NCBI RefSeq assembly: GCF_035084215.1
Contig: NC_090359.1
Span: 15,438,001-15,502,000, forward strand
DNA length: 64,000 bases
Direction: 5' to 3'
Source: Heptranchias perlo
Taxonomy: Eukaryota
Shown: in pieces, positions 8,341 to 63,942 of the stretch
Layout: each line of letters opens with the position of its first letter
How positions within the stretch are numbered: position 1 is the first letter of the stretch
The notes under the pieces: model-generated
What the model was told of the DNA's origin: nothing
The model's input: the letters and a program-made list of their open reading frames with translations, nothing else
Database searches by the model: none
Translations under genes and position numbers: made by a program

Positions 8341-8512
8341 ATCTTCAATATCATTTCCACCTCAATATTTATCTAGTTAATCTTCACAGCTTTAATTGAG
8401 GATTTATTCCACATTTTTTTTAAGTACAAAATATCAACTTTATTCTCAGTAATAATACATACAGAGACACTGGAAAAACCTGTTTTTCATTTTGAATATC
8501 TCCCCACAGGGA

Positions 8513-8662
8513 GGTGCACCGTTCCCAGAGACACTGCAATACTGGGTCGATGCGTGGAGTGGACGGAGCAAGCCCCTATTCCATCTCCCTGTTCCAAAAA
8601 TCAAATTAATATACGGTCCCCAGATAAGGGACGTATCAGATATTAAACTGATAAGAACAGAT
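8513..8662 (-). ncRNA. RNU2: U2 snRNA, 5'-truncated (nt 38 to 3' end); pseudogene
   Basis: Reverse complement reads ATCTGTTCTTATCAGTTTAATATCTGATACGTCC...GATTTTTGG (Sm site)...GCTTGCTCCGTCCACTCCACGCATCGACC...GGAACGGTGCACC; nt 1-37 are replaced by a retroposon poly(A). Confidence 0.95.
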
Positions 8663-9835
8663 TTTTTTTTCAAAAAATATACTTTATTCATAAAATTTGT
8701 AACACTACTTGCAATACAGTTGTCATCACATTTCAAACATACACAATACAGATTATACAATTTGCAAGATACATAAAGTACAGTTCAATTATGATTCCAA
8801 CAATACAGTTACACATTGTTCATAATTACAGTTCATGACACTCTAGGGTGCCTTATTGCATTACAATCAATAAGCTTATTGATTACAGATTCATTGCAGT
8901 ACATTACGATTCATTACATAAATTTGTATTTTACATTCTGCCCGAGGTGGGTTTTCCCTGATTGCAGCCCCTCGGTTTACAATTGCGGGAGAGCTCTAAA
9001 CGATAGCCTTTCCCCACAGAGCCTTTGCGGCGGCCGCACCCAGCTTCAGTGCATCCCTGAGCACGTAGTCCTGGACCTTGGAATGTGGCAGTTGAAAAAC
9101 ACTCGGTCGAGGACAGCTCCTTGCACTGGAAGACCAGCAAGTTTCGGGCAGACCAAATGGCATCTTTCACCGAGTTGATGGTCTTCCGGCAGCAGTTGAT
9201 ATCTGTCTCGGAATGCTTCCCTGGGAATAGCCCATAAAGCACAGAATCATGTGTTACAGAACTGCTCCCTTGAGGGAGAAACTAGAACCAGGGGCCACAG
9301 TTTAAAAGTAAGGGGTCTCCCATTTAAGATGGAGATGAGGAGAATTTTTTCTCTGAGGGTCGTGAGTCTGTGGAACTCCCTTCCCCGGAGAGCAGTGGAG
9401 GCAGGGTCATTGAATATTTTTAAGGCTAAGTTGGATAGATTCCTGATTAACAAGGGAGTCAAAGGTTATCATAGGTAAATGGGAAACTACGGTTGAGATC
9501 ACAATCAGATCAACCATGACCTTATCAAATGGCAGAGCAGGCTCGAGGGGCTGAATGGCCTACTCCTGCTCTTAATTTGTATGCATGAACCTGGACAGAT
9601 ACCACTGCATCTCTCTCCATATCGTCTTTGCAAAGGGACATTCCAGGAGGAGATGGGTGACGGTCTTGTCTCCACCGCAGCTTCCTCGGGGACAGCGCAC
9701 GTTGGCACTGAGAGGTCGGGAGTGCATGAAGGATCTGGCGGGAAGGGCCCTTCTCACCACCAGCCAAACTACGTCTTGGTGCTTGTTTGAAAGCTCTGGC
9801 GATGAGGTGTTCTGCCAAATGACTTTGGCAGAAAG
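8662..9835 (-). mobile_element. Keno-like Tx1-clade non-LTR retrotransposon (U2-specific), 5'-truncated, interrupted by CR1
   Basis: ORF2 C-terminal pieces KVIWQNTSSPELSNKHQD...CPRGSCGGDKTVTHLLLECPFA (zf-RVT) and LYGLFPG.H.ETDINCC; AATAAA (8683-8688) and A-tail abut U2 nt 38, the known Keno target position. Confidence 0.88.
9268..9584 (+). mobile_element. CR1 LINE 3' end nested in the Keno element
   Basis: TRGHSLKVRG..F..EMRR.FS.RVV.LWNSLP...FKAKLDRFL followed by a CR1 3'UTR; splits the Keno peptide SRF/SSSVT. Confidence 0.85.
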
Positions 9836-10184
9836 CCTCATCGCTGCACAATGGGGGAATCCTTCCAATCGAACACGAAGGATTGTTAATGTTGTATCCA
9901 CATCACGTACTTCTGTGCCCCAATTGTTTGTTGTGACACACAATCCATTTCTCTTGTTGTATTTTATACTATTACTGTGCGAGTTTCTGTTCTTATGGAG
10001 GTGTCTGTGGGTTCCCGTGGGCTGGATGTTGGTAATTTCAGCCTCTAATGCCTGTGTTTGAATACAGCCCACACTGACAGGAGGCAAATCTGTTCTACCT
10101 GCTACTTGTAAGGATCCCACATTAAACAGTCTGGGCAGCATCAATCCATTATTTACTGGGAATGGGCCCACTGCAAATATTGTG

Positions 10185-13777: not shown

Positions 13778-14272
13778 TTCTGCGCCTGGATGCTTCCGTG
13801 TTTCATGTCTACAAGGAGTGTGAGAGGTTGCAGCCCCTGTTCCACTATTTAAAGGGGCTGCTCCACAACTTCTGGCTGCGTTTCAGTCCCACGCTCCTCA
13901 TCTTTGGCCACCGGGTGAGGAGGAGGGCGGGTCAGTCGGAGGATCTCCTCGTGGGCCTGTCCAAGGTGGCCATCCACAGGTCCAGGTTAGACGGGGCCCG
14001 TGGGGGCGGTCGCTCCAACTGTCGGCCTCTCTTCCCCGGATTTCTCCGCGCCTGGGTGGCCCTGGAGATGGAGCACGCGGTGTCTGCCGGTTCGCTTGGG
14101 GCTTTCCGCGACCGGGGGGCACCGCAGGGGCTGGAGTGCATCCTGGACCGATATAATAAAATTTAAATTTGACACTTATTTTGGGTTGTTTGGTTTTTCT
14201 GCACAGGAACACACCCTAAACCCCGCTTCTTGTGAAAGGGGGGCCTAAAAACACAAAAAAATCAAAAAAAAT
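13778..14272 (+). mobile_element. Tx1-clade LINE 3' end (same family as 50783-52632)
   Basis: SVFHVYKECERLQPLFHYLKGLL..FWL.FSPTLLIFG...QGLECILD..NKI; 3'UTR GGGGGGCCTAAAA then A-tail. Confidence 0.88.
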
Positions 14273-14870
14273 CAAGCGTCATTCTGACTGCACTTCCAGT
14301 AAACACTTCAGAACCGAGCTGAGTGGAGGTCTGAGCAGAGCAAAACGACAGCCCTTGCCTGCCTCCTGAATCCGGGAGAAGGCAGAAAAAAAAACCATCA
14401 GTGATTCCCAGACTATTGAGGACCAACGGCTGTTAAAATATCACAGACAGAGTTACAGGAATGTTTTAAGGGGGCCCAGAAATAGTTAAAAAAGAGAGAA
14501 TTAACCCCACAGATGCTGTAGGCGGGGCTCGATTATTACTCCGGTCCGGTGGAAACTAATATCCAGTCGCTAATTCACAGCCCTTCCTCCGGACAATTAC
14601 ATTTCGGGTCAGACTCCCTGAGGACGTTTTTAAAAAATGATCTGAATACAGGAACATGTTTTGATAATGTTACTGTCTGTTGCTTTTGCTCATTTTTTGT
14701 CGGCTGCTGTAAAATTAAATTTTGATCTAACTTTTGAGAAGAAATGTGTTTGAAGGAGATATCGATGGCCCTGATGCTGAGTCCCTTTGGTAAATTGAGG
14801 TGATAATTGTGATCTGGAATTGAGTTGTGATGTTGGGAAGTCAGTTCCAGCTTCACTTCAGCCGTTTTCC

Positions 14871-18669: not shown

Positions 18670-18845
18670 CCGCCTTTAAGACACTCCGTAAAACCTGCGT
18701 ATTTGACCGAGCTTTTGGTCACCTGTCCTAATGTCTCCTTATGTGGCTCGGTGTCAAATTTTGTTTTAAAATCGCTCCTTTGAAGCGCCTTGGGACGTTT
18801 CACCACCTTAAAGGTGCAATATAAATGCAAGTTATTGTTGATGTT
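18670..18845 (+). mobile_element. L2 LINE/SINE 3' tail
   Basis: GTGGCTCGGTGTCAAATTTTG...GAAGCGCCTTGGGACGTTT...ATAAATGCAAGTT(GTT)n; similar tail at 25210-25337. Confidence 0.7.
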
Positions 18846-22628: not shown

Positions 22629-23009
22629 TCATCCAAATAACCTCTGGTCTGTCTCTCCCTATGTTTGAGTCACTCTATGTTTATATGTATGCGTGTGTGT
22701 CTGTTTCTTTGTGTAGGTGTGTCTTTCTGTGTATTTTTGTGTCTGTCGATGCATGCGTGTGTCTCACATTTTCTATGTTTTCCTGAATGCGTCTGTTTCT
22801 CCTTCTTTCTCTCTCTCACTCTCTCCCGCGCTCCCCACATAATTTTACTCTGGACATAATTGAACAAAGAGATGAAAAAGTGGTCGGGAAGTCTTTTTTC
22901 AACAGTGGCCTGTGGAAAATTAAACAAACTGTCATCAAACAATCGTTCAAAAAGAATCAGTAAAACATGAAGCATCTGTGGTGAATGTACGGTAACACCC
23001 AGCATCGAT

Positions 23010-23081
23010 TCCTCGTTAGTACAGTGGTGAGTATCCCCGCCTGTCACGTGGGAGACAGGGGTTCAATTTCCCGACGAGGAG
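23010..23081 (+). tRNA. tRNA-Asp(GTC), variant, possibly non-functional
   Basis: 72-nt TCCTCGTTAGTACAGTGGTGAGTATCCCCGCCTGTCACGTGGGAGACAGGGGTTCAATTTCCCGACGAGGAG; several substitutions relative to the canonical vertebrate sequence. Confidence 0.7.
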
Positions 23082-24156
23082 GTTATTGCTGCTTTAGAAG
23101 TTTCACTTTCATTTATCTGCAATATTGGATGTTGAAAATACAATGAAAAACTGACTCGGCCTTTCCCACTTCCACAATTTGATTTCACAGCGATTTTAAA
23201 ATCTGCTCTCTGCCTCACTCTTCAGCTCGATGTGAGAACCACAATGATGGGCAAGAAATAAAATGCAGAATTGTGCTGTGGACAGACCGGGTCTGAGTCA
23301 CCAGCCCGAAACAGGGAGAGACCGATCGAGAGAGAGAGACAGACAGAAAGAAAAAAGATGGAGATACAGAGAGAGACAGGTCTCGGAACAGGCGCAGATG
23401 AGAAAGCAGACTCGGAAGATCTCACATACAGCAATGAAAAGGATGCATGTTTCAGTGAATCTATTTTAACTCCTTCTTTGATGACAGTTTGTTTAACTTT
23501 CCACATGCCACTGTTGAAAGAAGACTTACTTTCTATCTCTTTGTTAGTCAAGGTCCAGAGAAAAATTATGTGGGGAACAGGGAAAAAGTGACAGAAAGAA
23601 AGAAAGAGAGAGACACTCAGAAACGGGTAGAAAAAGTGAGACACACGCAGACATATTCACACATACACAAACACACACATTCATAGCTACATACACACTC
23701 ACACAAAGACACACCGGCATGTACACACAAACATACACCCTCCAATAACCTGAAAGTAACACAGGACTACTTGCCAAACAGCAGAAGCAGCATGCTATAG
23801 ACAGAGCAAAGCAATCCCACAACCAACGGATCTTCTGCAGTCCTGCCACACCCAGTTGTGAATGGTGGTGGTCAATTAAACAACTAACGGGAGGAGGCTC
23901 TGTGAACATCCCCATCCTCAATGATGGTAAAGCCCAGCACGTGAGTGCAAAAGACAAGGCTGAGCTGTGAGCAACCATCTTCACAGAAGCAAGTCTTACA
24001 TCGAGGTGAAGAATGACGCACAGAGCAGATTTTAAAACCGCTGGAATATCAGTTCATTTAAATTGAGGAAAGTGGGAATCTCCGAGTTAGTTTTGCACTG
24101 CACTTTCCACATCCAATATTGGAGATAAAAGCTTTTGAAGGCAGCGAAAGTTTAAC

Positions 24157-24228
24157 CTCCTCGTTGGGGAATTGAACCCCGGTCTCCCACGTGACAGGTG
24201 GGGATACTCACCACTATACTAACGAGGA
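24157..24228 (-). tRNA. tRNA-Asp(GTC)
   Basis: 72 nt; anticodon stem compensated (CCCAC/GTGGG); one T-stem mismatch. Confidence 0.75.
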
Positions 24229-24420
24229 ACTACTATACTGATTCTACACTCACCCCAGATGGCGTTAAAAATGCTTCATGTGTCAGTGAATTTCTTTTAA
24301 CTATTTATTTGATCACAGTTTGTTTAATTTTCCACGGGCCACCGTTGAAAGAACCTTTAACATTTCCATCTCTTTGTTAGACAACGAACAACTGACTCTG
24401 TCTTTCTTTCGTTCTTTCTT

Positions 24421-24480
24421 TCTCTTTTATCGTGGTGAGTTGCCCCGCCTTAGTCCGTGGTTTAATTCCCCGACGGGGAG
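24421..24480 (+). pseudogene. tRNA-Asp pseudogene lacking the anticodon arm
   Basis: GTGGTGAGTTGCCCCGCCT...TTTAATTCCCCGACGGGGAG; same lesion at 36109-36167 and 38251-38310. Confidence 0.7.
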
Positions 24481-24614
24481 GAAGCATTTATTAGACGCCA
24501 ACTTTAATTTTATGTCTTCGCCAAGCTTCTTCCTAAAAAAAACTACAGAGAAAAATAAACAGCTGATTGTTGCTTTCAGAATATTATTGAACGGGGACTG
24601 GATGCAGAGCAATT

Positions 24615-24698
24615 GTGATTTTAACTAACTAGTGATTAAGGTGATAGTTTGGAAATCCATTCGTTTACCCCGCGGAGGTTCGAATCTGGTAGATTTCA
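24615..24698 (+). pseudogene. tRNA-Ser pseudogene
   Basis: AGTGATTAAGGTGAT...GAAATCCATT...CCCCGCG.AGGTTCGAATC resembles tRNA-Ser(AGA/TGA). Confidence 0.6.
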
Positions 24699-47472: not shown

Positions 47473-50325
47473 CTAGTTAAACTGGGTTTGCTTGTGTTTC
47501 CTGTTCAGGAACAAGGCAATCCAAGAAGCAGAGATCAGAGAGACAGCGCTCACAGTCAGGGCCAAGATCAGGACCACCTCAGACGCCACACCTATAAAGC
47601 AACAAGAAACCAATGGTTAGTGAAGGAAATACTGAGGGGAAAATGGAAACTAGCAGTCGGCCAACTCACCACCTGGAGACCTCTCCTGCATCCTTTGCTC
47701 AACATCATTAAGGGGCTCAGTTGCCAGGTCTGTCACATGAGGATCCAGAATGACCAAGGGTCCAAGTGAGGCCTCACCCTCCCACTTCAACTCAGCATCA
47801 CTCTCTGCAATATCAAACATTCCAGTTAGAGAGTAAAGGGTGACCTCCAACAATCAAGAGGATCAATGTCCTACCAGGTCCAGATACAAGATCCCTCCTT
47901 CCTCTGGAATCAAGTCGGAATTCCCTACTGGCACTGCAGTTGCCCAGATGACAACAGGCACACACGTCATTGGTCGATTCTTCCAATGGGGTCCAGCTCA
48001 ACCAGAGAATCAGTTTATCAACCATGTTGTCCATCACCCTTTAATATAACACATCCCTGAGTGAGAGAGAGGGAACTTACATATTCTGGAAAGTACAAGC
48101 TTTGTTCATTGAATCTCTCCGATCCACTGCAGCAACTTTCAGGTGACAGGTGATGAAAATCTGAGGGACACATTCAATACAAGTTGTTATTTAGTGACCT
48201 CCTCCCAACATGGGGAACCCAATGTTTGGCTTCCTCTTACCAAGGAACGGTCATCTCCAAAGAAGCGGAACGCATCCAGATCAAACTGGAGTTTGTCCAG
48301 CTCACGTTCACCTCTTGGCAACACAAAGGTTGAAAAGGAGTCCTCAGCTTTGCTGTCCAGGAGGCAACTGAAGAAAGATTTAAAAAGGGACAAAGTGAAT
48401 TAAGTGAACCGATTGAGACAGAACCAGCTGGAGAAAGCAGAGAGCTCCTTACCCATGGGAGTCAATGATGTATCTTGGGGTGGAATCCTTGTCTGGGCTC
48501 AATGTAGCTGCACAGCTGTCAATGTAGAGCTTCAAGGGCATGTGGTTGGTCATTGAAACAGAGGCCTCAATGTGAATGAGGTCACCCAGGTAGTAGACAG
48601 TCGAGGTGCGCTCTGTAAGCCAGTCATCTGAAGTACAAGAGGAAAAGGGTTGGAGACAGTGGGCGTAACTCCCAGTGGGAGACCACAGAAAAGCACTCCC
48701 CATCCACCCATCACATACCGTTCATAAGACGCAGTGAGAATGACAGAAGCCCTTCTCCAGACTTGGTAGAGCTGAATGGGATCCAGGTGGGCTTGATAGG
48801 GTCACTGCTCACATTGCCCTTCCTGAAAGGACAGTACAGTAATTTCAGGACAACTTCACAGAACTGCACCTGCTGTAGACCTTATTTGCAATAGAGTAAA
48901 GATTCTTACCTAAAATAGTGGCACTCAATGGGAATGACTGCTCCATTAGTTCTCACAATAACAGATCCACGAGCATTTGGGGTGTGGTTCAGGTGGGTGG
49001 TGTCGACCAGGAAATCGCCAGCCATCTGAAAGACATCAGGTTATGGAATGAAGAGCTGGCCTCATTGAACAAAAGCTATTTCTGGTCATTTTCCGACCCT
49101 GTTAAGCAGCAGTTTAAGGGGTTTCAGATGCTCCTCAATGACACATGATTGAAGTAGCTCCACCATTGGTAGAAGTTGCCTGGAGCAGCCTCTGTTCCTC
49201 GACTCAGTCCACCTTCTATTACAGGGGACTTCAGGCCTGCAGTCAGAAACCCCTGAAATGATTGGCACTGCCAGATTTGATGAGCATTCTTTCCCATTTC
49301 GATTAGAGCTTTCACCTTAAGGGGCTCAAGTTACCCCTGATATGGAGCACAAAACACAACATCACATTGAAATCTCATCTGTGTCCGTGGAATCAATGGT
49401 CTTGGCAGGTGTAACAACCAAAAGTGGAGTTCCCCTTTAATACACTGTATCCCAATTATTGTTCCACTTGTTTCATCTTTCAAGGGAAGTCTCAACAGGA
49501 ACTTCCACACTGAACATTCATTGACCACAAGTTGAGGCAGCAGGCCTGAATATCCACAGGAAGGAACGGAAAAGATAAATCAATTGAGGCACAAAAGAAC
49601 AGAGTGGTTTGGAGAAATGCAGGTGAAGGTTCAAGGTCAATAGAATTGAATCTCAGAGTTAGAGAGTAGCAATGACCCATTTAAGAAAGATGCAGTCCCT
49701 CAGTGACAAGTTGAAGTTCTTTTTAAATATAAAGCGAAGATTGACATGTCAACAGAAAGAAGTAGTTTCACACAGGGTGATACTTCACAGTGGGCAAAAA
49801 TTTATACACAGATTTAATTCAGGGATCTCCTCAGTGGCTGGAGTTTCACCCGATGTTAATGAGTTCAGAGTGGGCAGTAATCTACACAGTGAAATTGGAG
49901 CAAGAGTTGAGGAATCACATTACCTGCAATCTGCTGCCACATTCATGGAGCCCATAGTCAAAGAGGACAGTGTGGTTCTGAGAGTAGATCCCAGTTGGCC
50001 GATAACCTGCTGTCCCCAGGGTCAGGTCAGCAGCTTTAATCAGGTGCCTGGTTCTAAATAAATCCATGTCTACCCTCACCAGCAGGTTCTGCTCTCCACA
50101 CTGCACCATCACAATCTGCAGTGGAGACAGACTTCTCCCCTCAGACACACTGAAATGGGAACCAAAGGGAGGGACAGGGGGAGGGACTCTCTGGGGTACA
50201 GGGGTGGGTTTTACTCTTCTCCATGGAAATCTCTGCCCTCTAAACTGTTGCCAAATATCAGAGCAACAAACCGCTCCAACTAACACCAGCACCGGGAACA
50301 AACCTCTCACTACAAAATCCCCCAT
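47473..50325 (-). CDS. zp3: Zona pellucida sperm-binding protein 3 (ZPC)-like, 459 aa, 9 exons; possibly decaying
   Basis: Exons 50325-49924, 49025-48910, 48822-48719, 48627-48453, 48367-48241, 48160-48081, 47996-47875, 47804-47670, 47591-47473 splice in frame (1380 nt). Signal peptide, ZP-N (VQC, HECG, IECHY), ZP-C (CACC), furin site RGRR, C-terminal TM; AATAAA at 47454-47459. Confidence 0.9.
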
Positions 50326-50438
50326 GATACCAAACAACTCAACTATCACTTTACCCACCAACCAGCACCTTTTTTTTTTCTCTTTTTTTTTTCCTTTTTT
50401 TCTTTTTCTTTTATCACTTTACCCACCAACCAGCACCC

Positions 50439-50750
50439 TTTTTTTTTCTTTTTCTTTTCTGTTTTTTAGGCCCCCCTTTTACAAGAAGCGGGGGGGGGGG
50501 GTGTAGGGTGTGCTTAAGTGCTAAAAACCAAATAAAACGAAACCAGGCATCAAATTAAAATTTTATTTTCCTCGTCCAGGATGCACTCCAGCCCCTGCAG
50601 TGCCCACCGGTCGCGGAAAGCCTCAAGCGTACCGGCAGACACCGCGTGCTCCATCTCCAGGGCCACCCGGGTGCGGAGCAACCCGCGAAAGAGAGGCAGA
50701 CAGGCCGAGCGCCCGCCCCCACGGACCGCGAGCATCCTGGACCTGTGGAT
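50439..50750 (-). mobile_element. Tx1-clade LINE 3' end inserted in the zp3 5'UTR/TSS
   Basis: RVALEMEHAVSAGTLEAFRDRW..QGLECILDEENKILI*, 3'UTR GGGGGGCCTA and A-tail abutting the zp3 leader. Confidence 0.9.
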
Positions 50751-50782
50751 ATCCAGGATGCACTTCAGTTTCGTCTAGTTTT

Positions 50783-52632
50783 CTGGTGGGTCAGTGGCGG
50801 GTTGACTCCCTGCCGGAGGAGCTCAGGCCTTTCGCCTGGAGTACCATGCACCTCCGGTACCTGGGAGTCTACCTCGGCCCTGCCGAGGAAGCCTGGCCGG
50901 CGAACTGGGAAGAGCTGGAGGCCAAGGTCGCCGCTCGCCTGGCGCGCTGGACAGGACTGCTCCGAGTGTTATCCTACAGGGGTCGAGTGCTGGTCATAAA
51001 CCAGCTGGTGGCCGCCATGTTGTGGTACCGGTTGGTCACTTTGACCCAACCCCCCGAGTTTGTCGCCAAAATTCAGAGGAAGTTCGTCGACTTCTTCTGG
51101 GCCAGAGGGATACACTGGGTCGCTGCCGCGGTCCTGAGTCTCCCGCTTAGGGAGGGCGGTCAGGGGCTGGTGTGCGTCCGCACCCAGGTGGTAACTTTCC
51201 GCCTTCGGACGCTGCGGCCATACCTGTACGTTGAGCGTCCTCTTAGATGGCGTGAGCTGGCGACGTATTTTTTCCGCCAGCTGCACGGCCTGAACTACGA
51301 CACGCAGCTCCTGTTCGTCTCGCTGGTGGGCGGCCGCATGTCTTTGCAGGAGCTGCCTGTCTTTTACCAGGATCTGCTCAGGGTCTGGAACATGGTCGCC
51401 TCCGGTCGGAGTTCTCGCCCGTCAGGGGTTGCGGCCGTCCTGCAGGAGCCGCTGCTCGGGAATCCGTTCCTCCGCGATATCGGCTTCGGCCACTCGCGGC
51501 TGTCGGTGCGGAGGGCCGTGGCCGGTCGGGTGACCAGAGTCAGGGACGTCCTGGATGGCGGTGGGTCGGGTTGGTTGGAGCCGTGGGCGCTCGCCGCACG
51601 GATGTCCTCGTGGCGTGCCGGGGACGCGGCCATCGCCATCCGGGCGTTGAAATCGGCGCTCGGCCCTGACTCCACTCGGGATGTGGAGGCGGCTCAGGCG
51701 TGCGGAGCCATCCCGTCCGACCTGACCCCCGTTCGAACGGAGTTCCTCCTCGGCGCCAAACCCCGGAACCTCCCTCGGGGGGCCGCGCCTCACAACTTGA
51801 GCCGTCTCTCGGAAATTCCCTCCGTGCCGTTTCACACCGCGCGGAGGGATTTCCTGTACGGGCTGCTCCTGCACACCATCCACTTCCTCGCCCTCGTCTC
51901 TCGGCCGGACACGCCCTGGCGTACCATCCTGCCGTCCGGCGGAGACGGTGGTTCCCAGTGGGGGACTCTCTACTCAGGGATCCTCCCGTGTTCCATCGGG
52001 GATCTGGGGTGGAGGGTGGCGCACGGAGCAGTCGCGTGCAACCGGCGGTTACGCCATTTCACGGACACCCAGGCCGCTTGTGATTTCTGCGGCCTGGAGG
52101 AGTCCGTGTTCCATCTGTGCACTGGGTGTGCGAGACTGCAGCCACTGTTTGATTATTTGAAGGGGCTGCTCCTCAAGTTCTGGCTGCATTTCAGTCCCAC
52201 GCTCCTGATCTTTGGCCGCCCGGTGAGGAGGGGAGCGGGCAGGTCGGTGGACGTTCTCGTGGGCCTGCTCCTGGGCCTGTCCAAGGTGGCCATCCACAGG
52301 TCTAGGATGATCGTGGTCCGTGGGGGCGGTCGCTCGGCCTGTCTGCCTCTCTTCCGCGGAATGCTCCGCGCCCGGGTGGCCCTGGAGATGGAGCACACGG
52401 TGTCTCCCGGTACGCTCGAGGCTTTCCACGACCGGTGGGCACCGCAGGGGCTGGAGTGCATCCTGGACGAGGAGAATAAAATTTTAATTTGAACACTTGG
52501 TTTTGGTTTGTTTGGTTTTAGTATTTAAGCACACCCCACACCCCCTTCTTATAAAAGGGGGGCCTAACAAAATTAACAAAAAGAAAAAAGGAAAAAAAAA
52601 AATCTGAAAGTGAAAAAAAAAGAAAAAAAAAA
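50783..52632 (+). mobile_element. Tx1-clade LINE, 5'-truncated, with uninterrupted ~570 aa ORF2 C-terminus (young copy)
   Basis: RYLGVYLG, LSYRGRVLVINQL, EGGQGL, zf-RVT CDFCGLEESVFHLCTGC; stop at 52492, 3'UTR hairpin and A-tail. Confidence 0.93.
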
Positions 52633-53065
52633 ATCTGAAAGTTTCTCTTTGTTTCAATCTCTTGAAATCATAACTTTGAATTATTTGATAATAATTTGAT
52701 ATTTTCACTGAAGTGGCTTTTCATAATCTGGTCAAGTTTATTACTTGTTAGTGATTGTGATGTTGAGACAATATTCAAAGCAATCAAGTTGTCTTGAGTG
52801 AATTTGCAAACCATCCATTGGTCAGAGAAATGGAAATTCCATCCCATGGATGGTGTGAATCGTCCCCAGTTCTAATATAGAGAATGGGTGTGTCTGAGGA
52901 TTGGCAGCATGGGGGCATCAACTGGGCAAAGCATTGTGGGATGCATCATTTTTAGTTTTGATTCTCATGAAATGTTGTTTGGTAAAATTCAGGATATTCA
53001 GCGAGAATGAGAGGCAGTGAAGATTACTGAATGCAATGTCACCCACACAAACATCTCCATTTGTG

Positions 53066-53435
53066 TCAGCTGTGGCTCAGTGGCAGCACTCTCACCTCAG
53101 AGTCAGAAGGTTGTGGGTTCAAGTCATCATCTCGAGACTTGAGCACATAATCTAGGCTGACTAAGGGAGTGCTGTACTGTCGGAGGTGCCGTCTTTTGGA
53201 TGTGATATTAAATCGAGGCCTCATCTGCTCTCTCAGGTGGACGTAAAATATCCCACAGCACTATTTCGAGGAAGAGCAGCGGAGTTCTCCCCAATATCTG
53301 GACCAATATTTATCCCTCAACTAACATCACTAAAACAGATTATCAGGTCAATATTTCATTGCTGTTTTTGGGTCCTTGCTGGAGGCAAATTGACTGCCGC
53401 ATTTCTTACCTTACAACAGTGACTACACCTCAAAG
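53066..53435 (+). mobile_element. DeuSINE (SacSINE1-like)
   Basis: A-box TGGCTCAGTGG, B-box GGTTCAAGT, Deu domain GGTGGACGTAAAATATCCCACAGCACTATTTCG. Confidence 0.8.
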
Positions 53436-55226
53436 GTGCGAACTATGCAGCAGTCAAAGCTACCAGATAATCCACACTGACTCCTAAAATTATGGCTCAA
53501 CAACGTATGAAATGTGGTGACATTGATATCCCAAAAGTGCCTTTAGAGATCATAATATCCTACTATTACAGCACAGAAAGAAGCCATTCAGCCCATTGTG
53601 CCTATGCTGCCTCTTTGAAAGAGCTATCCAATTAGTCCCACTCCCCTGCTCTTTCCCCCTTCAAGTATTTATCCAATTTCCTTTTGAAAGTTATTAAATC
53701 TGCTTCCACCACCCGATGAGGCAATGCATTCCAGATCAGAACACTGAAAAAAGTTTCGTGTCACTTCTGGTTCTTTTACCAATCACCTTAAATCTGTGTT
53801 TGCTGGTTACTAACCGGTCTGCTACTGGAATCAGTTTCCCCTTATTTACTCCATCAATATAAAGATATCAACATGGACTGACTGAAGACGGCAATTCTAT
53901 CACACCCAGTGCAAGTCACAAGTTCCTAAACTTCACTTGGAAACACTGGATAATTACAGCTACAGCATCAACATTTGAATCCATTCATAGGGGTGAAGGA
54001 GATGAATGGAGAACCCATAGGGTTTGGAAAGGTTGATTACAATTTGGTATGGAACGCACAATAGGACTAGAGGCAAATCGACACATTTATGGAGGAGCTG
54101 ATTGTATTGTGTTTATGAATTGATGGCATTGGGATGTGGAGTTTCAGGCAAAATATCTATTTAACTTGGTTTAAATGAAATGGTGATCCAGTAGAATTTA
54201 GAATTGTAATCTAGTATTAACTGCACAATGGGATAAATACAAATTGATAGATTTATGGATGAGCTGCTTATATTGGGTTTATGAATTGATGGAACAGTAG
54301 TGGTATGGAAGAGTTTAGGAGCCTTATCTATTCAACTTAATGGTTCAAGTTCGTTGTTTAGTGCATTTACTACGTCTCCCAGAAGGAAGATTTTGTTTGC
54401 TGGAGTTTAGTTAGAGGTATTTTTTCTGTACCATACCCAATTTATTATTCATGGGGGAGATTAACAGGGGGTTGGGGGGCAGAAGATGAAAATGAAGGGA
54501 AATAGAAAAACAGGGAACCTGCACTCCCCCATATGAGACCTATTTGACTCCAAACGAACAGTTTATTAGGAGTAATAGTGAGTGATTTCATAAGCTACCC
54601 CAACGACCTACTGAGGTCTGTAGCATCTTTGGAAAAAAAAGCATCTGGATTGTTCTTCCCCAGGCAGATACTATTCTTAAAAAAAAATGCCTATTGGACT
54701 GAAATTACTAGTTCACTTTCCTTGTGTTTTATTGGAACAAAATGTTACAGCAGCTGATTTTGCATCATTAATGAGTTAAACAGTTGATAATATGCAGTAC
54801 TAATAGGAACAGTAACTCATTACTGTATTGTTCTTTGCATTGAAATCAGCAGTAATCATTTTACTGCATAAATACAATTTACACTCAAGGCAGACACATT
54901 GGCCCTCAACACCCAAGTCACTACATTGATATGATCCCAGAAGAAAAAATGTCATAGGGCAGAATCTCACCCTAAAGCCAATACATAGCCCAATGTAATT
55001 TGTTACAACAGCTGAATTATGTTAATCTGAAAAATAAGCAATCACTCAATTTACAAGGAGCCAAAACCCAGTCTTCTGTAACAGTTTATTTCCAGTTACT
55101 ATTACATTTCACATCAAGAGCCCAGGTCTCACAGCTCTTAGTACAAAGTCACCATTGCTACAGGATAGGGGTTCTTCAGACTATAAACAGGAGTACTGAA
55201 CAATAAGCTTTATCCCTGCAGTCAGT

Positions 55227-57784
<2,558 letters not shown>

Positions 57785-57857
57785 CTTTAAATTAACTTTA
57801 ACAAAACTAAACAACTCTATTGAAGCAAGAAACTGAAAAACAGCCACCCAAAGCTCC

Positions 57858-58027
57858 ATATTTATACTGCTGGTTAATCCTGGGCGTGGCAGCCTAGATG
57901 ATGAGTGACAGTTGGCAATACCCAATCAGAAATTACATCCTCTCTCAGAACACCAATCAAGAAAAGGGAGGAGGGGAGATGACACCCAGAGCCAGTCAGA
58001 ACTTTGAAGGAGGAGCATCATTGGCTG
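57858..58027 (-). promoter_or_regulatory. Ferritin copy 1 promoter (TATA + CCAAT boxes)
   Basis: TATAAATAT at 57866-57858; CCAAT motifs near 57922, 57954 and 58020. Confidence 0.65.
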
Positions 58028-58087
58028 ACAATTCAATAAAGATCCAATTGCTTTGACTTTCCTCAAACTGTAAAATCTGTTTCCGTA

Positions 58088-58257
58088 ACCGGTGGGCACC
58101 GCAGGGACTGGAGTGCATCCTGGATCGATGTAATAAAATTATAATTTGACACTTATTTTGGGTTTATTGATTTACTGCACATAAACACAACCAAACCCCC
58201 CTCCCCTTCTTATAAAAGGGGGGCCTAAAACACAAAAAAAGGAAAAGAAAAAAAACC
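58088..58257 (+). mobile_element. Tx1-clade LINE 3' end upstream of ferritin copy 1
   Basis: CCGGTGGGCACCGCAGGGACTGGAGTGCATCCTGGA...CCCCTTCTTATAAAAGGGGGGCCTAAAA then A-tail; a further minus-strand fragment at 58545-58625. Confidence 0.85.
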
Positions 58258-60620
58258 ATGGCTGCTCTTCCATCCCACACTCCAAAGAAAAAAAAATCTG
58301 ATAGTGACCATATTCTTGACCATAATCGACCTTTCTTTGATGGACCAATAAGGGAGACTCTGGGTTGCCCCAGGGTCACCAAACATAAACCATCACAAGT
58401 GGCCCTCTCAGGGCACCACTAATATTGGATGGTCCAATCAAACTGAAAAGATACCAAAATAAGCATCAAGTGCCACCAAAAACAACAGGATACTTTCCCA
58501 ATTAAATCAGGATTCTATTATTAATGTCTGAAAGACAGTCTATACCCTGCGGTGCCCAGCGGTCGCGGAAGGCATCAAGCGTAACGGTGGACACCACATG
58601 CTCCCTCTCCGGGGCCACCCGGGCACTTGACCATAATGGACCAAATTGTCAATTGGTTGATCTGCCCCCATCCCATCGGTTATGGTCACTGATCGTGACG
58701 GTTCAAAGATCCAGAACCACAGGTTTAATTGTTGTTTGCGGGTCAGTGTCTTTGAATAATTCTGGATGGATCCGTGAGTTGGTTATTTGGCAAGTAGCTG
58801 CGGGTTTGAGGCAACATCCAAACAGATCAGAGCCTGTGAACAGCAACCAACAGCGAGTCAGGCGAATGGAAAGTGGGTGTGATGAACGTGTTAAACACAA
58901 GTCCTTCAATACTCCATCAATTCTAGGGTCAGTGAGCATCTGTACACACATCGGCTGGAAAGTGAAGGGGGCCACGGCATGTTGAGTTCTTGTTTTGTCA
59001 TCATGACATTTTACAAACAATAAAATGCAGAGCACTCCACGGGGAAGAGACTGTGGACCATTGACTGAAGGGATTTGGGGCGGGGGGTGGTTTGGTGTTG
59101 GGAGGGATTGCGGTGAGAGGCAAACACTGTGTGTAGTGTTGGTTGTATATACAGTGAGCGACAGTGGTGAACAGACTATCTGGTATTTCCTGGGTTTGGT
59201 AATCCCTTGTTTCAATGATTAATCTCTTGTACTTTTTGGACAGTCAAACACCAAGTGGAAAGAGTCGAGTGGTGAATTTTCTCATTAGAAAGGGGAGTTA
59301 CTGATATTTCCCTAAATCCGGTCAGGGAAGGATGGGGCCCCGTGGATATTTTGTGTTCCAGATCACATCAGAATACTGTCGGATCAACAACAAACAGCAG
59401 GCTAAAAAAAAATCAAAGGTGGAACCTAGTGAAGGAAAGATGAAGCAACGAAAAGTGGGGTCGATGGACTGATCTGATCATATGATCCCTGTGTGAGAAT
59501 AACCTGAACATCACTGGTGCAAACTCAGTTAAAGATTTAAACAGACCAAGTAGTTGGTGGTTTAGCCTTTAATTAGATGGCTCTATTCTCCAACTCTTCA
59601 GTAGACTTATAAGTGGCAGTTTTGGCAATTGGGATCTCGTGTTATTTGGTTCCAGGCCAAATAAGATTACACAAAGATTGTATTCGCAAGGAGAGGGGAA
59701 TGGGGCAAGAACTGTTTAATGAAACAGAATCCAGCAAGGGAAACTTAGAGGGGCTCTTAGATTTGCAACAGCAAATGGAAGTATTTTAGAGGCTATGGGG
59801 TCCAGGATATAAAAGGTGCATGAGGTGAACAGAGACTGGAAAATAAAAATTGAGATTGAAACAAATAGCAGGAGCTGGACCAAAGTTCTGCACAGGAAGA
59901 AAAAGATGGGCTGAAGAGAAGGAGGAAAGAGCCAGGTAACCCTAGCAGGAACAATTGGAGATTTGGTCTTACTTTGCTCCAGGATTTTTGTAACTACTTA
60001 AATTTGAATACCTGCTTCAGGGAACACTTCCCTGATGTCCTACAATGGACAAGTCAGCAGCAATGTGTGGGGTTGTTTATTCAGAAGGTTAACTACTGTA
60101 ATCACCATTGATGCCCACATCCCATGAACGAATAGTAATTAAAAAATGCACACTCTCCAAAAGGGATTCAAGCCTATGTGGAGGAAGAGGTCTTACTGTA
60201 ATCAGATTACACTTTAATCTCTACTACAGAACACCAAATATTGAAAGCTGTTAGGTACAAAATCTAATTTTGGCCTGATGGCCATCCTGGGCTGCTACAA
60301 AACCAAATTAAGCCTTCTGGAGGGGAAGGGGTTAAAACATCCATGTGCCCAAACAAATCAGATTTTATCACGGTGACAACCTATTTCTTAGAATTTTTTT
60401 GTTTGACGCAAGGCCACGTGCATTGGTGTTAGAATGTGCACAATTACTGAAGAAAAGGAACCAGTTCAACATCAAAATGTTTTATTTCAGCTGCAAGAAC
60501 ACTCAACTACAATGTTTGGAAGTTAATCTTAGACTTTGAATTCCATTCCCAGTTCAGAGAGATGGCAACATAAAACTTCAATGCACAAGTTGAATATCTG
60601 CAACATGGACAACAGTCCAG

Positions 60621-63600
60621 TCACTCCTCCCCCAGGCTGTGCTTGTCAAACAGGTACACTCCCATGCCATTCTCAGGGGCTCCCAGTCTCTTCAGGTTGG
60701 TGATGTGATCTCCAAGCTTCTTGATCATCTTCACTTGTTCATCCAAGTAGTGGGTCTCCAGGAAGTCACACAACTGGAAAGGGAAAAATAAAAATCAAGC
60801 TCGCTACTTGAATCATTAGGTTCCTTTAATCTCACTTCCCTACTGGGGAATACTCAAGGTCTCATTACAAAATATGGCCAAGAGACTACTAGATCTAACT
60901 CCTTGCCCTCCCAGCCACTGGTATTGAAAATAAATGCTGCCCTGCCCCAGTCCCTCACCTAAAGTCAGTATCCATTTGAAGGTTCCCTTCAAGCCCAAGA
61001 TATCTCAACCCTTGAAACAGATTGATTTCAAGGACAGATTTTAATGCTCACCTTCAGTAGATTTAAAAAACCTCAGATTTAGAAATGGAAAGTATTGAGC
61101 TGCATTCAGTCTGATGTGATTTTAAAGGACAGTGCTAAATTACACAATCCCAAATTAAAAATAAACCCAAAAGCTAAATGCCACTGATGCATTAAGGACT
61201 TACATGAGGGTCTGTCCTCTCAGTGGACAGTTTGTGCAGATCCAGCAGACTCTGGTTCACATCCTTCTCCATCTGCAGAGCTCTCTGCATCGCCTCCAGA
61301 CCATTGCCCCACTCATCCTGCTCTGGCTTCTGAAAAGGGAAGTCTTTCAAGTCACAAAATGCTCAAGCTCCCATCTGCATCCCATGCAGTATTAATCTCA
61401 AACTAGCCTGAAACAAGAGGATGACTGGAGAGTGGAAGAAAATTGATTTTTGCCCTGATGTTAGCAACAAGTACTCTGTTCAGTTATAATGTAGAACATG
61501 TGGCTCATTAATGAGAAAACATCTTCTCTGCTGTGGAGAAATTTTCCACATTCTGAAAGCTGGATAGAGGCTGCACTGGGGACCAATCATTCAATATGAA
61601 AATAAGCCTCAATAAATTACATTTGGCCCAGTCATGATCTCAACAACTGGCAGGTGGGTCATTAACCAGAGGACACACATTGAAGATAATGGGCAAAAGA
61701 ACCAGAGGGAAGATAGAGATTTCATATATAAACAGTGAATTGTTACAATCTGGAATGAAATGCCTGAAAGGGAAGCTGATTCAATAGCAACTGTCAGAAC
61801 AGATTTTTATGTATAGAATCATGAAAAGGAATAATTTACAGCTCTATGGGGAAAGAGCAGGGCACGAGGGACTAATTGGATATTCTTTCAAAGAGCCAGC
61901 ACAGACACTATGAGCCAAATGGCCTGATTCTATGAACAAACCTTGATGTCCTCCAAGATGATTCGGCCTCCACGCTGATTCTGGAATTTCAGCAGTTTCT
62001 CAGCGTGCTCCCGTTCCTCATGTGACTGCTCCTTGAAGAACTCAGCAAAGTGACGCAGGGCAACATCATCCCGGTCAAAGTAATAGGACTGTAGGCACAA
62101 GAGTCAATTAAACAATCATACCAAATTAAGATAGAGAACAAACATCAGTACAGTGATTTCACCATGGATCAGGGAACCAAGGAGTTTGATCATTTTTAAA
62201 GAGTACTCATATTTCCTAACTCAGTTCACCTGGTGAAAGTAGACAACAGGTGGCCAGTGGAGAATGGAATCACCTCAGTCTTTGACCACACTGAGCAACT
62301 CAACTTAAACCCAAGCTTGAGCTACTTGGCCATTCAGGTACCTCCTGCCCACATCTCAATTGACACAAAGCATTAACCAGGAAGTCACATGACAGGTCCT
62401 CCTTCAGTGTTGGATACTGTGACCAAGGTGCCGAAAGCTACCTGTTCCACCACAAGTGATTCAGAAAGACCAGGGTGCACAATTAGTCAATTAACTCATG
62501 CAATGAGTCTCCTCCTTTTAGAGGGTCTGTGTACTAGATCAGAACTTGTGACATTCCAAGAAAATAAGTTGTAACAGAGACAAACAATGTGAGAGGATAA
62601 AACTCAAATTAGTTCAGATCACTAAATCAGGGAAAATTTAGATGTACATTTGACATCTGAAAAACTTTTCCAAATCAATAATCTGAACTCACCACAAACC
62701 CCCACCCCCTATTCACATGTCAAGGATCAGCACAGCCCAAGGAGGGCTGACCTCCTTCGTTCATGGTCTTGCCCAGTCCCATGTGGTCCAGGAGAGGGAG
62801 CATGCAGTGTCCAGCAGTACACTCATTTGAGGCCATGACCAGTAGGCACCAGTGAAGAGTGAGATATAAATTTCCTTTTGCTCATATTAGGCTTTATGTT
62901 CATTGCTTTGTAGCAATTGGGCACTTTCCTGATAACAACAGAGAGCAACCCAATGTCAGCCTTACTTGATTAAAAAAGGCACACATTTCTCCACTGTGTT
63001 CTATACATTCCATCAATTACAAGTTTCTTGCTATTGTACAGACAAGGGTTACACTCCATCCCAAACCTGAACAAAACTCCCTTCATTAAGCAAGAAACTC
63101 CACCCATTTTGAAAATTCCCAATTTGATTTTAGAAACTTTGAGAAGTTCAATTAAGCTTTTGGCTGGAAAAGACAGGTTACAAGATCAAGAGTATGGAGC
63201 TATGGCTAAGAATGCCCATGGATTTGTGTTTTGACTAAAGATTTCACCACAGGTGTTTCAAAGACCCCAACTATGGGCAAGTCACCTGTAACTCAAAAGA
63301 CACTCACTGGCCAATGTACTGAATAGGCTTTTTTTGGGGGGAGTGGGGAATGCATTTCACAGTCTCAATGTAAACTCCAACATGGAAACTATATAAAAAA
63401 GGACCCAGACAATCCATTTGAAAGGATAATGAAACATCACAACTATAAAGATACTTAAAAGAAATATTAGAACAGCAAATTCAATTATTTTACTGAATTT
63501 AAAAGGTTAATTCACTAGAATTCAGTAAGTCTACATTAGTTAATAAGACAAAATACCCAAAGAAACCCAAAGCTCACCATAGAAAGATAAACATAGGAGG

Positions 63601-63679
63601 AATAGAGCTCCATATTTGTCTGCTTGTTGACACCATCCTCACACTCCTTGTGGTAATTCTGACACACTTGAGAAGCCAT
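60621..63679 (-). CDS. Ferritin heavy/middle-type subunit, copy 2 (175 aa, 4 exons)
   Basis: Exons 63679-63578, 62088-61942, 61329-61204, 60773-60621 in frame; ferroxidase residues intact; AATAAA at 60481-60486. Confidence 0.93.
61650..61935 (+). mobile_element. CR1 LINE 3' end in ferritin copy 2 intron 2
   Basis: ACCAGAGGACAC...ATCTGGAATG...; ends GATTCTATGA next to the exon 2 donor. Confidence 0.7.
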
Positions 63680-63755
63680 CCAAACTACTTTTTTTTAAAT
63701 AGACCAGCAACTGACTATAAACAATATGAACATAAGGACCTCAAACCTAAGCTGC

Positions 63756-63835
63756 TATATTTATTCTTTCAGACCCAACCCATCTTTAACTACAGGATGT
63801 GACATCACGGATGATAAATGTTTGGCAGCCAATCA
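63756..63835 (-). promoter_or_regulatory. Ferritin copy 2 promoter (TATA-like + CCAAT)
   Basis: Minus strand AATAAATATA at 63765-63756; GCCAATC at 63828-63834. Confidence 0.55.
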
Positions 63836-63863
63836 AATAGCTGCTTTCTCATCACACGAACGG

Positions 63864-63942
63864 AAAAAAACCCTAACCCCTCCCCCTGAAAAAAGTGGGG
63901 GGGGCCTAAAAACACCAAAAAAAAAGGAAAAACACACAAAAA
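63864..63942 (+). mobile_element. Tx1-clade LINE 3'UTR/tail upstream of ferritin copy 2
   Basis: ACCCCTCCCCCTGAAAAAAGTGGGGGGGGCCTAAAACACC(A)n matches the 3'UTR of the copies at 14220, 52540 and 58195. Confidence 0.7.

Follow-up and report, generated by a model that had tools for sequence, protein, structure and literature searches.

Dewa, a long interspersed nuclear element (LINE) of the Tx1 clade, targets the spacers of transfer RNA (tRNA) arrays; the TRE5 and TRE3 elements of Dictyostelium and the yeast elements Ty1 and Ty3 insert position-specifically near multicopy genes, where they are tethered to transcription factors. According to the accessible part of one survey, the targets of Tx1 elements include U2 genes, microsatellites and DNA transposons, and tandem insertions occur around a duplicated target (Kojima 2015, PMC4494074); the targets of Kibi and Koshi are described in a second paper, also available in part (PMC3812793). 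Tf, P, Mutator and mPing prefer sites upstream of genes (Cosby 2019, PMC6719617, a review whose accessible sections name no LINE among them), and P-element dimers lie nearer to gene starts than single copies do (McGurk and Barbash 2018, PMC5932611, accessible text). In vertebrates, LINEs mostly lie at a distance from the starts of genes, as the available part of a zebrafish study indicates (PMC9341512). Here we analysed a 64-kilobase (kb) stretch of the genome of the shark Heptranchias perlo (the window, in whose numbering all positions are given) and found insertions of a Tx1-clade lineage crowded at three promoters, those of a zp3-like gene and of two ferritin genes. Several separate landings in front of egg-type genes suggest that this lineage favours the open starts of genes that are used in germ cells.

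BLAST and profile searches identified seven insertions of the lineage, including every copy that the original prediction had placed at 50439, 50783–52632, 58088–58257, 63864–63942 and 13778 (the second and third now begin at about 50771 and at 58080); its statement that zp3, ferritin 1 and ferritin 2 each have an antisense copy upstream is also borne out. Five of the seven insertions lie in promoter zones, no more than about 250 bp upstream of zp3 and the two intact ferritin genes, compared with none of 34 control repeats hand-listed from a self-BLAST of the window (Fisher p = 0.001). When neighbouring insertions were collapsed into five loci, three of the five fell within −300 to +50 of the three gene starts (binomial p = 5e-5, or 5e-3 when five promoters are considered and the zones are widened to 1 kb). 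The starts were deduced from where TATA and ATG lie. Individual promoters were hit repeatedly: two families are present at ferritin 1, and two copies and two tail-only pieces at zp3. The promoter copies comprise three antisense and two sense insertions, and a rule of orientation was rejected on this count.

The long copy at zp3 contains an open frame of 576 amino acids that corresponds to the C terminus of open reading frame 2 (ORF2). This protein matches an alligator ‘transposon TX1’ protein (E = 5e-72) and a Takifugu TX1 protein (E = 8e-33), and matches human L1 ORF2p only at E = 0.03–0.08. By these comparisons the element is a member of the Tx1 clade, with an ORF2 closer to Tx1 than to L1. 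The marks of the clade are present, namely an A-rich 3′ tail, 5′ truncation (all seven copies) and target-site duplications of 8, 9, 17 and 25 base pairs (bp); duplications were not found for the copies at 63864 and 62710. Protein P0001 has no Pfam match, close relatives carry RVT_1 and zf-RVT domains, and relatives of 1,320 amino acids combine an APE endonuclease, a reverse transcriptase and zf-RVT. A quick tree of 25 C-terminal halves (three short rows left out, no labelled Keno, Kibi or Dewa rows and no L1 outgroup) places the element in a group with proteins of turtles and one whale-shark model; the Tx1 proteins of alligator and teleosts fall outside this group. Scans for the 3′-end pattern of the element found no locus in metagenome and viral contigs and one match, bacterial and by chance, in genome contigs; a protein-led metagenome scan confirmed none of 158 candidates.

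The original prediction had treated all copies as one family. The piece at 58545–58624, which it had listed as a fragment (58545–58625), belongs instead to a whole 5′-truncated insertion from a sister family; this copy has a separate 3′ untranslated region (UTR) and a 17-bp target duplication (58315–58331 and 58626–58642, 16/17 identical). The remaining copies are only 83–91% alike. At least two related Tx1-clade LINE families are present and were inserted at different times. The introns, which had been described as free of copies, are not: ferritin-2 intron 1 holds an older copy, around 0.9–1.05 kb downstream of the TATA-like box (Table 1).

Table 1 Genes, upstream regions and Tx1-lineage insertions in the window
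Feature	Position	Strand	Details
zp3-like gene	47476–50325	−	ATG 50325; open exon frames; Pfam Zona_pellucida E 1.2e-10, one exon
25-bp target duplication with tail-only A tract between	50345–50437	−	50345–50369 = 50413–50437, 25/25 identical
Short 5′-truncated Tx1 copy	50439–50756	−	Sense to zp3
Long 5′-truncated Tx1 copy	about 50771–52632	+	Antisense to zp3; ORF2 C terminus and 3′ UTR
Displaced zp3 upstream region	52645–53060	−	CCAAT boxes 52821 and 52904; TATA-like word absent
Ferritin 1	55231–57866	−	4 exons; ATG 57784; TATA 57866; open exon frames
Tx1 copy	58080–58257, with second A tract to 58300	+	Antisense to ferritin 1; 214 bp from TATA
Sister-family Tx1 copy, 5′-truncated	58332–58625	−	Sense to ferritin 1; own 3′ UTR
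Ferritin 2	60622–63763	−	4 exons; ATG 63679; TATA-like 63763; CCAAT 63833; open exon frames
Older decayed copy, same lineage	62710–62850	+	Ferritin-2 intron 1; nhmmer E 7.3e-10
Tail-only Tx1 copy	63864–63942	+	Antisense to ferritin 2; 101 bp from TATA-like box
Tx1 copy away from recognisable promoter	13778–14275	+	About 650 bp 3′ of GPCR gene

The tail-only copy at ferritin 2 was recovered with a profile built without it (nhmmer E = 1.8e-4). The ferritin-1 copy ends in an A tail, a 30-nucleotide (nt) insert and a second A tract, and is enclosed by an 8-bp target duplication (58072–58079 and 58293–58300); a match of equal length occurs in 15 of 2,000 random windows. Both copies are antisense and stand about equally far from a CCAAT box, as expected if both genes had inherited one old insertion through gene duplication, and hitchhiking of this kind is real at other ferritin loci. 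The original prediction had itself raised such inheritance as the alternative to watch for. Between the two genes, neither the promoters nor the 3′ flanks align better than shuffles, and the same holds for introns 1 and 3 (intron 2 is marginal, with a score of 31 compared with a shuffle maximum of 29), while the tails of the two copies are 77% alike; the 5′ ends differ, as do the distances to TATA, and the ferritin-1 copy is 83–88% alike to unlinked copies. Because the flanks are unalignable, the two copies are independent insertions; inheritance of one insertion was rejected and has almost no chance of being correct.

Over 507 coding bases the two ferritins show just 15 differences, and 4 of 55 four-fold sites differ, while their introns, leaders and 3′ flanks cannot be aligned (55231–57784 versus 60622–63679). 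This likeness would reflect homogenisation restricted to the exons, either by gene conversion or perhaps by way of complementary DNA.

At zp3, 44 nt of the native leader are left before the insertions begin. Reading away from the leader, the order is target, A tail, target again and then the short sense copy, followed by a piece of about 18 nt (50751–50768) that is re-copied from the 3′ part of the element itself. The long copy lies head-to-head with the short one and ends in two A tails, between which is a 9-bp repeat of the right flank; its CpG observed/expected ratio is 0.88, compared with 0.48 for the window. The two copies are 91% alike and so probably come from different source elements; no duplication enclosing the pair was found. 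A sequence scan detected no TATA-like word on either side of the inserted pair, and we infer that the core promoter of zp3 was lost with the insertion. A TATA-like word in the 3′ UTR of the element was considered as a new zp3 TATA and rejected, given that the word is altered in the sense copy.

Doubled A tracts are found at four 3′ ends of the family (zp3 short at 50345–50437, the right end of zp3 long, 14255–14275 in the copy at 13778, and 58240–58300), where the two tracts are separated by a repeat of the flank in three cases and by the unrelated 30-nt insert in one. Doubled tracts may be a family trait that arises when reverse transcription is re-initiated at one nick.

The junctions also bear on whether the element reads a sequence. 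An endonuclease of classical Tx1 specificity could recognise a short word that recurs by chance in these promoters, and many Tx1 families are indeed target-specific according to the accessible part of PMC4494074. When the 3′ junctions were aligned in search of a target consensus, as the original prediction had proposed, the 9-mer that it had named proved to follow the tail at two sites only, which agree at 8 of 9 bases and begin with the same four bases that follow a Tx1 tail in a U2 gene at 8662; the other five 3′ junctions differ, and a target sequence common to the copies was rejected on these grounds. The duplications also vary in length. Targets of the known kinds (U2, tRNA, microsatellite, DNA transposon) are absent from the flanks of all seven copies. 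For Keno, which inserts into U2, the comparison is direct: the sole U2 gene in the window (8509–8680) holds a different element, and none of the copies touches U2. Direct reading of the flanks revealed no (TC)n or (TTC)n of the kind associated with Kibi and Koshi. Regarding Dewa, seven tRNA genes lie at 23009–40447, and there is no copy between 14275 and 50370. Classical specificity is thus very unlikely. The element at 8509–9900, a decayed one of Tx1 type in a U2 small nuclear RNA gene without its 5′ end, is as Keno predicts, and is itself broken by a CR1-like piece.

A second possibility is that a protein of the element binds a factor at oocyte promoters, such as NF-Y on the CCAAT box, and cuts at a fixed distance. 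Ferritin 1 has CCAAT boxes at 57926, 57957, 58024 and 58048, and at both ferritins, with matching orientation, the 5′ junction falls 32–33 nt from the middle of the outermost box (32 nt for the copy at 63864). Repeated hits at single nicks would also fit, and NF-Y sites are dynamic during alligator oogenesis in the accessible part of one study (PMC13274144). The agreement concerns two sites and was noticed post hoc, and 15% of random sites have a CCAAT box within 35 nt. Furthermore, at zp3 the nearest CCAAT box is 186 nt away for one site and 474 nt away for the other, and there are copies in an intron and 3′ of a gene. We consider active tethering improbable, if less so than sequence recognition.

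Mis-predicted public gene models served as our probe for the lineage outside the window. Among 158 ferritin proteins, 15 have an N-terminal extension of more than 20 amino acids (11 of these are named as sharks), and 2 of the 15 extensions carry the Tx1 lineage. XP_067828094.1, from Heptranchias, starts with an antisense reading of the end of ORF2 (E = 7e-44), in a piece longer than any copy beside the window ferritins; UPI00398E74A3, from Pristiophorus, starts with the sense end of ORF2 from a diverged subfamily (E = 3.5e-13 to P0002). Another of the ferritin extensions corresponds to a LINE of the window that is not this one. With the element as the sole query, a search returned 125 hits, of which 122 were scanned and 9 had a recognisable host domain. 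Two of these nine chimeras are ferritins, standing for four Heptranchias models with one common sense piece (96% alike), which points to one insertion multiplied by gene duplication. Overall, there are at least three further events at ferritin starts, two in Heptranchias and one in Pristiophorus. Six host events were counted in cartilaginous fish, with the piece N-terminal in two (a ferritin and an IQCA1-like protein); one ferritin in six events has a chance of about 2%, by arithmetic that assumes a ferritin share of 0.3% of genes. The sense query picks up fusions at the C terminus more readily. Among the hosts, axonemal dynein, IQCA1-like and BUB1B (P0201, P0240 and P0301) are genes of cilia and sperm or of dividing cells, in a sample too small for testing a germline theme. 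On the evidence of these models, two orders of sharks carry the lineage repeatedly at the 5′ ends of ferritins, yet promoters are not its only sites.

Shark ferritins exist in multiple copies, with protein clusters of 180 and 138 members across species. Heptranchias has arrays of ferritin heavy-chain-like genes (dozens of models on at least three contigs), and large arrays occur in many sharks; we found no report of this expansion in the literature searched.

Several points weigh against a preference for germline promoters. The window was picked by a scan, so the p-values overstate the case. Two of the seven copies are off promoters, in ferritin-2 intron 1 and 3′ of a G-protein-coupled receptor (GPCR) gene, and there is no copy at the start of that gene (ATG 17240) or at the CpG-island promoter at 44200–44700. 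In four of the six host events the piece is internal or C-terminal (DNAH6-like, ZNF585A-like, CADM2-like and BUB1B). Gene prediction is biased towards open frames that are rich in GC and towards multicopy genes that are broken, and ferritin chimeras may therefore be over-counted; protein models carry no distance to the start; and XP_067828094.1 is without exon 1, so its copy could be intronic. Oocyte expression of the window genes, in turn, is read from gene names and from the lack of an iron-responsive element. A rival account invokes chance and a local hot region: the lineage would insert without promoter bias, this gene cluster would be locally rich in it, the scan would have picked the window, and the hits outside would stem from gene-model bias and the duplication of ferritins. 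So few insertions, two of them elsewhere, the four Heptranchias models that reflect one piece and the chimeras that are not N-terminal all fit this account. It sits less well with the in-window p-values of 5e-5 to 5e-3 obtained after loci were collapsed, with the placement of copies within 48–64 kb, where gene starts still hold them and the longer stretches between genes do not, and with the similar behaviour of a diverged subfamily in Pristiophorus. Chance is doubtful as the full explanation, although it is the rival we take most seriously. What stands of the germline-promoter targeting that was originally proposed is the clustering at three promoters, which no control repeat shares; what does not stand is a restriction to promoters.

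We postulate that a weakly sequence-specific LINE inserts at the open edges of germline promoters and is retained chiefly where genes are multicopy and redundant, a reading that we judge to have about an even chance of being right. Copies would be inserted by target-primed reverse transcription, 5′-truncated and at different times. The preference of the endonuclease appears to be loose, in which case access would decide the site, and the accessible edge of strong germline RNA polymerase II (Pol II) promoters, with TATA and CCAAT boxes, would be hit repeatedly. Two hits at one nick would give the tail–target–tail junctions and the head-to-head pair at zp3. Insertions would persist mainly at redundant multicopy genes, such as the ferritin arrays of sharks, and survivors would be multiplied as their host genes duplicate. 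The habit would be a bias akin to the promoter preference of P elements and Tf1, not strict targeting. A bolder version holds that a Tx1 lineage of cartilaginous fish gave up targeting RNA genes by sequence and came to target oocyte Pol II promoters by position, cutting at the outer edge of the CCAAT/NF-Y footprint, finding a safe harbour in the redundant arrays of ferritin and egg-coat genes and deleting or replacing core promoters, as apparently at this zp3; we regard this as rather unlikely.

One ferritin exon of the window is 100% identical to Heptranchias perlo ‘ferritin heavy chain, oocyte isoform-like’, and neither ferritin leader has an Rfam match to an iron-responsive element, which is compatible with, and no proof of, an oocyte-type ferritin. 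The ferritin-1 leader at 57786–57840 resembles a decayed iron-responsive element in its motif; Rfam gives no match there. Ferritin and zp3 transcripts are abundant in the zebrafish ovary, according to the part of PMC1488847 that was available. Elsewhere in the window, the CpG island has a GC content of 58% and a CpG observed/expected ratio of 1.0, and no gene was identified beside it. It holds NRF1-, ETS- and CRE-like words. The region at 18700–40450 consists of duplicated blocks with tRNA-Asp, tRNA-Phe, tRNA-Glu and tRNA-Leu genes and decayed copies.

If the preference is real, a LINE lineage that favours germline promoters would represent a new mode of targeting for non-LTR elements (those without long terminal repeats, LTRs). 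Its insertions would record which chromatin is open in the germline of sharks, and through them the promoters of multicopy egg genes would turn over. Should genome-wide enrichment be absent, a Tx1 family of the ordinary kind remains, unusual in its doubled 3′ junctions. Neither a promoter-targeting Tx1 element nor this shark family is reported in the literature searched, a scope that left out most subscription papers, supplements and Repbase.

Compared with known systems, the lineage resembles TRE5 and TRE3 in being a non-LTR element. TRE and Ty elements insert near Pol III genes at a fixed distance, whereas the shark lineage is found at Pol II genes, at about 0 to 250 bp, and flanks none of the seven tRNA genes of the window. 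With the members of its own clade (Tx1L, Keno, Kibi, Koshi, Dewa and the crocodilian Tx1-Mar, as covered in the accessible part of PMC4494074) it has in common the ORF2 C terminus, 5′ truncation, an A-rich tail, target duplications, a tendency towards multicopy hosts and repeated insertion at one site with a duplication between copies, as in SINEU-3. It differs in that the targets known for the clade, within that source, are defined sequences, whereas the common feature here is a position upstream of Pol II protein-coding genes. Drosophila P, fission-yeast Tf1, maize Mutator and rice mPing are DNA transposons or LTR elements that use a transposase or an integrase, and their enrichment is proven genome-wide, whereas the excess of the shark lineage is known from one window; what they have in common with it is the independent, repeated insertion at the same promoters seen here. 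If positional targeting is true, the shark lineage would be an example of a vertebrate LINE behaving as the P element or Tf1 does. The cluster is real and has some support from other loci, and the apparent habit of the lineage resembles that of promoter-preferring transposons.

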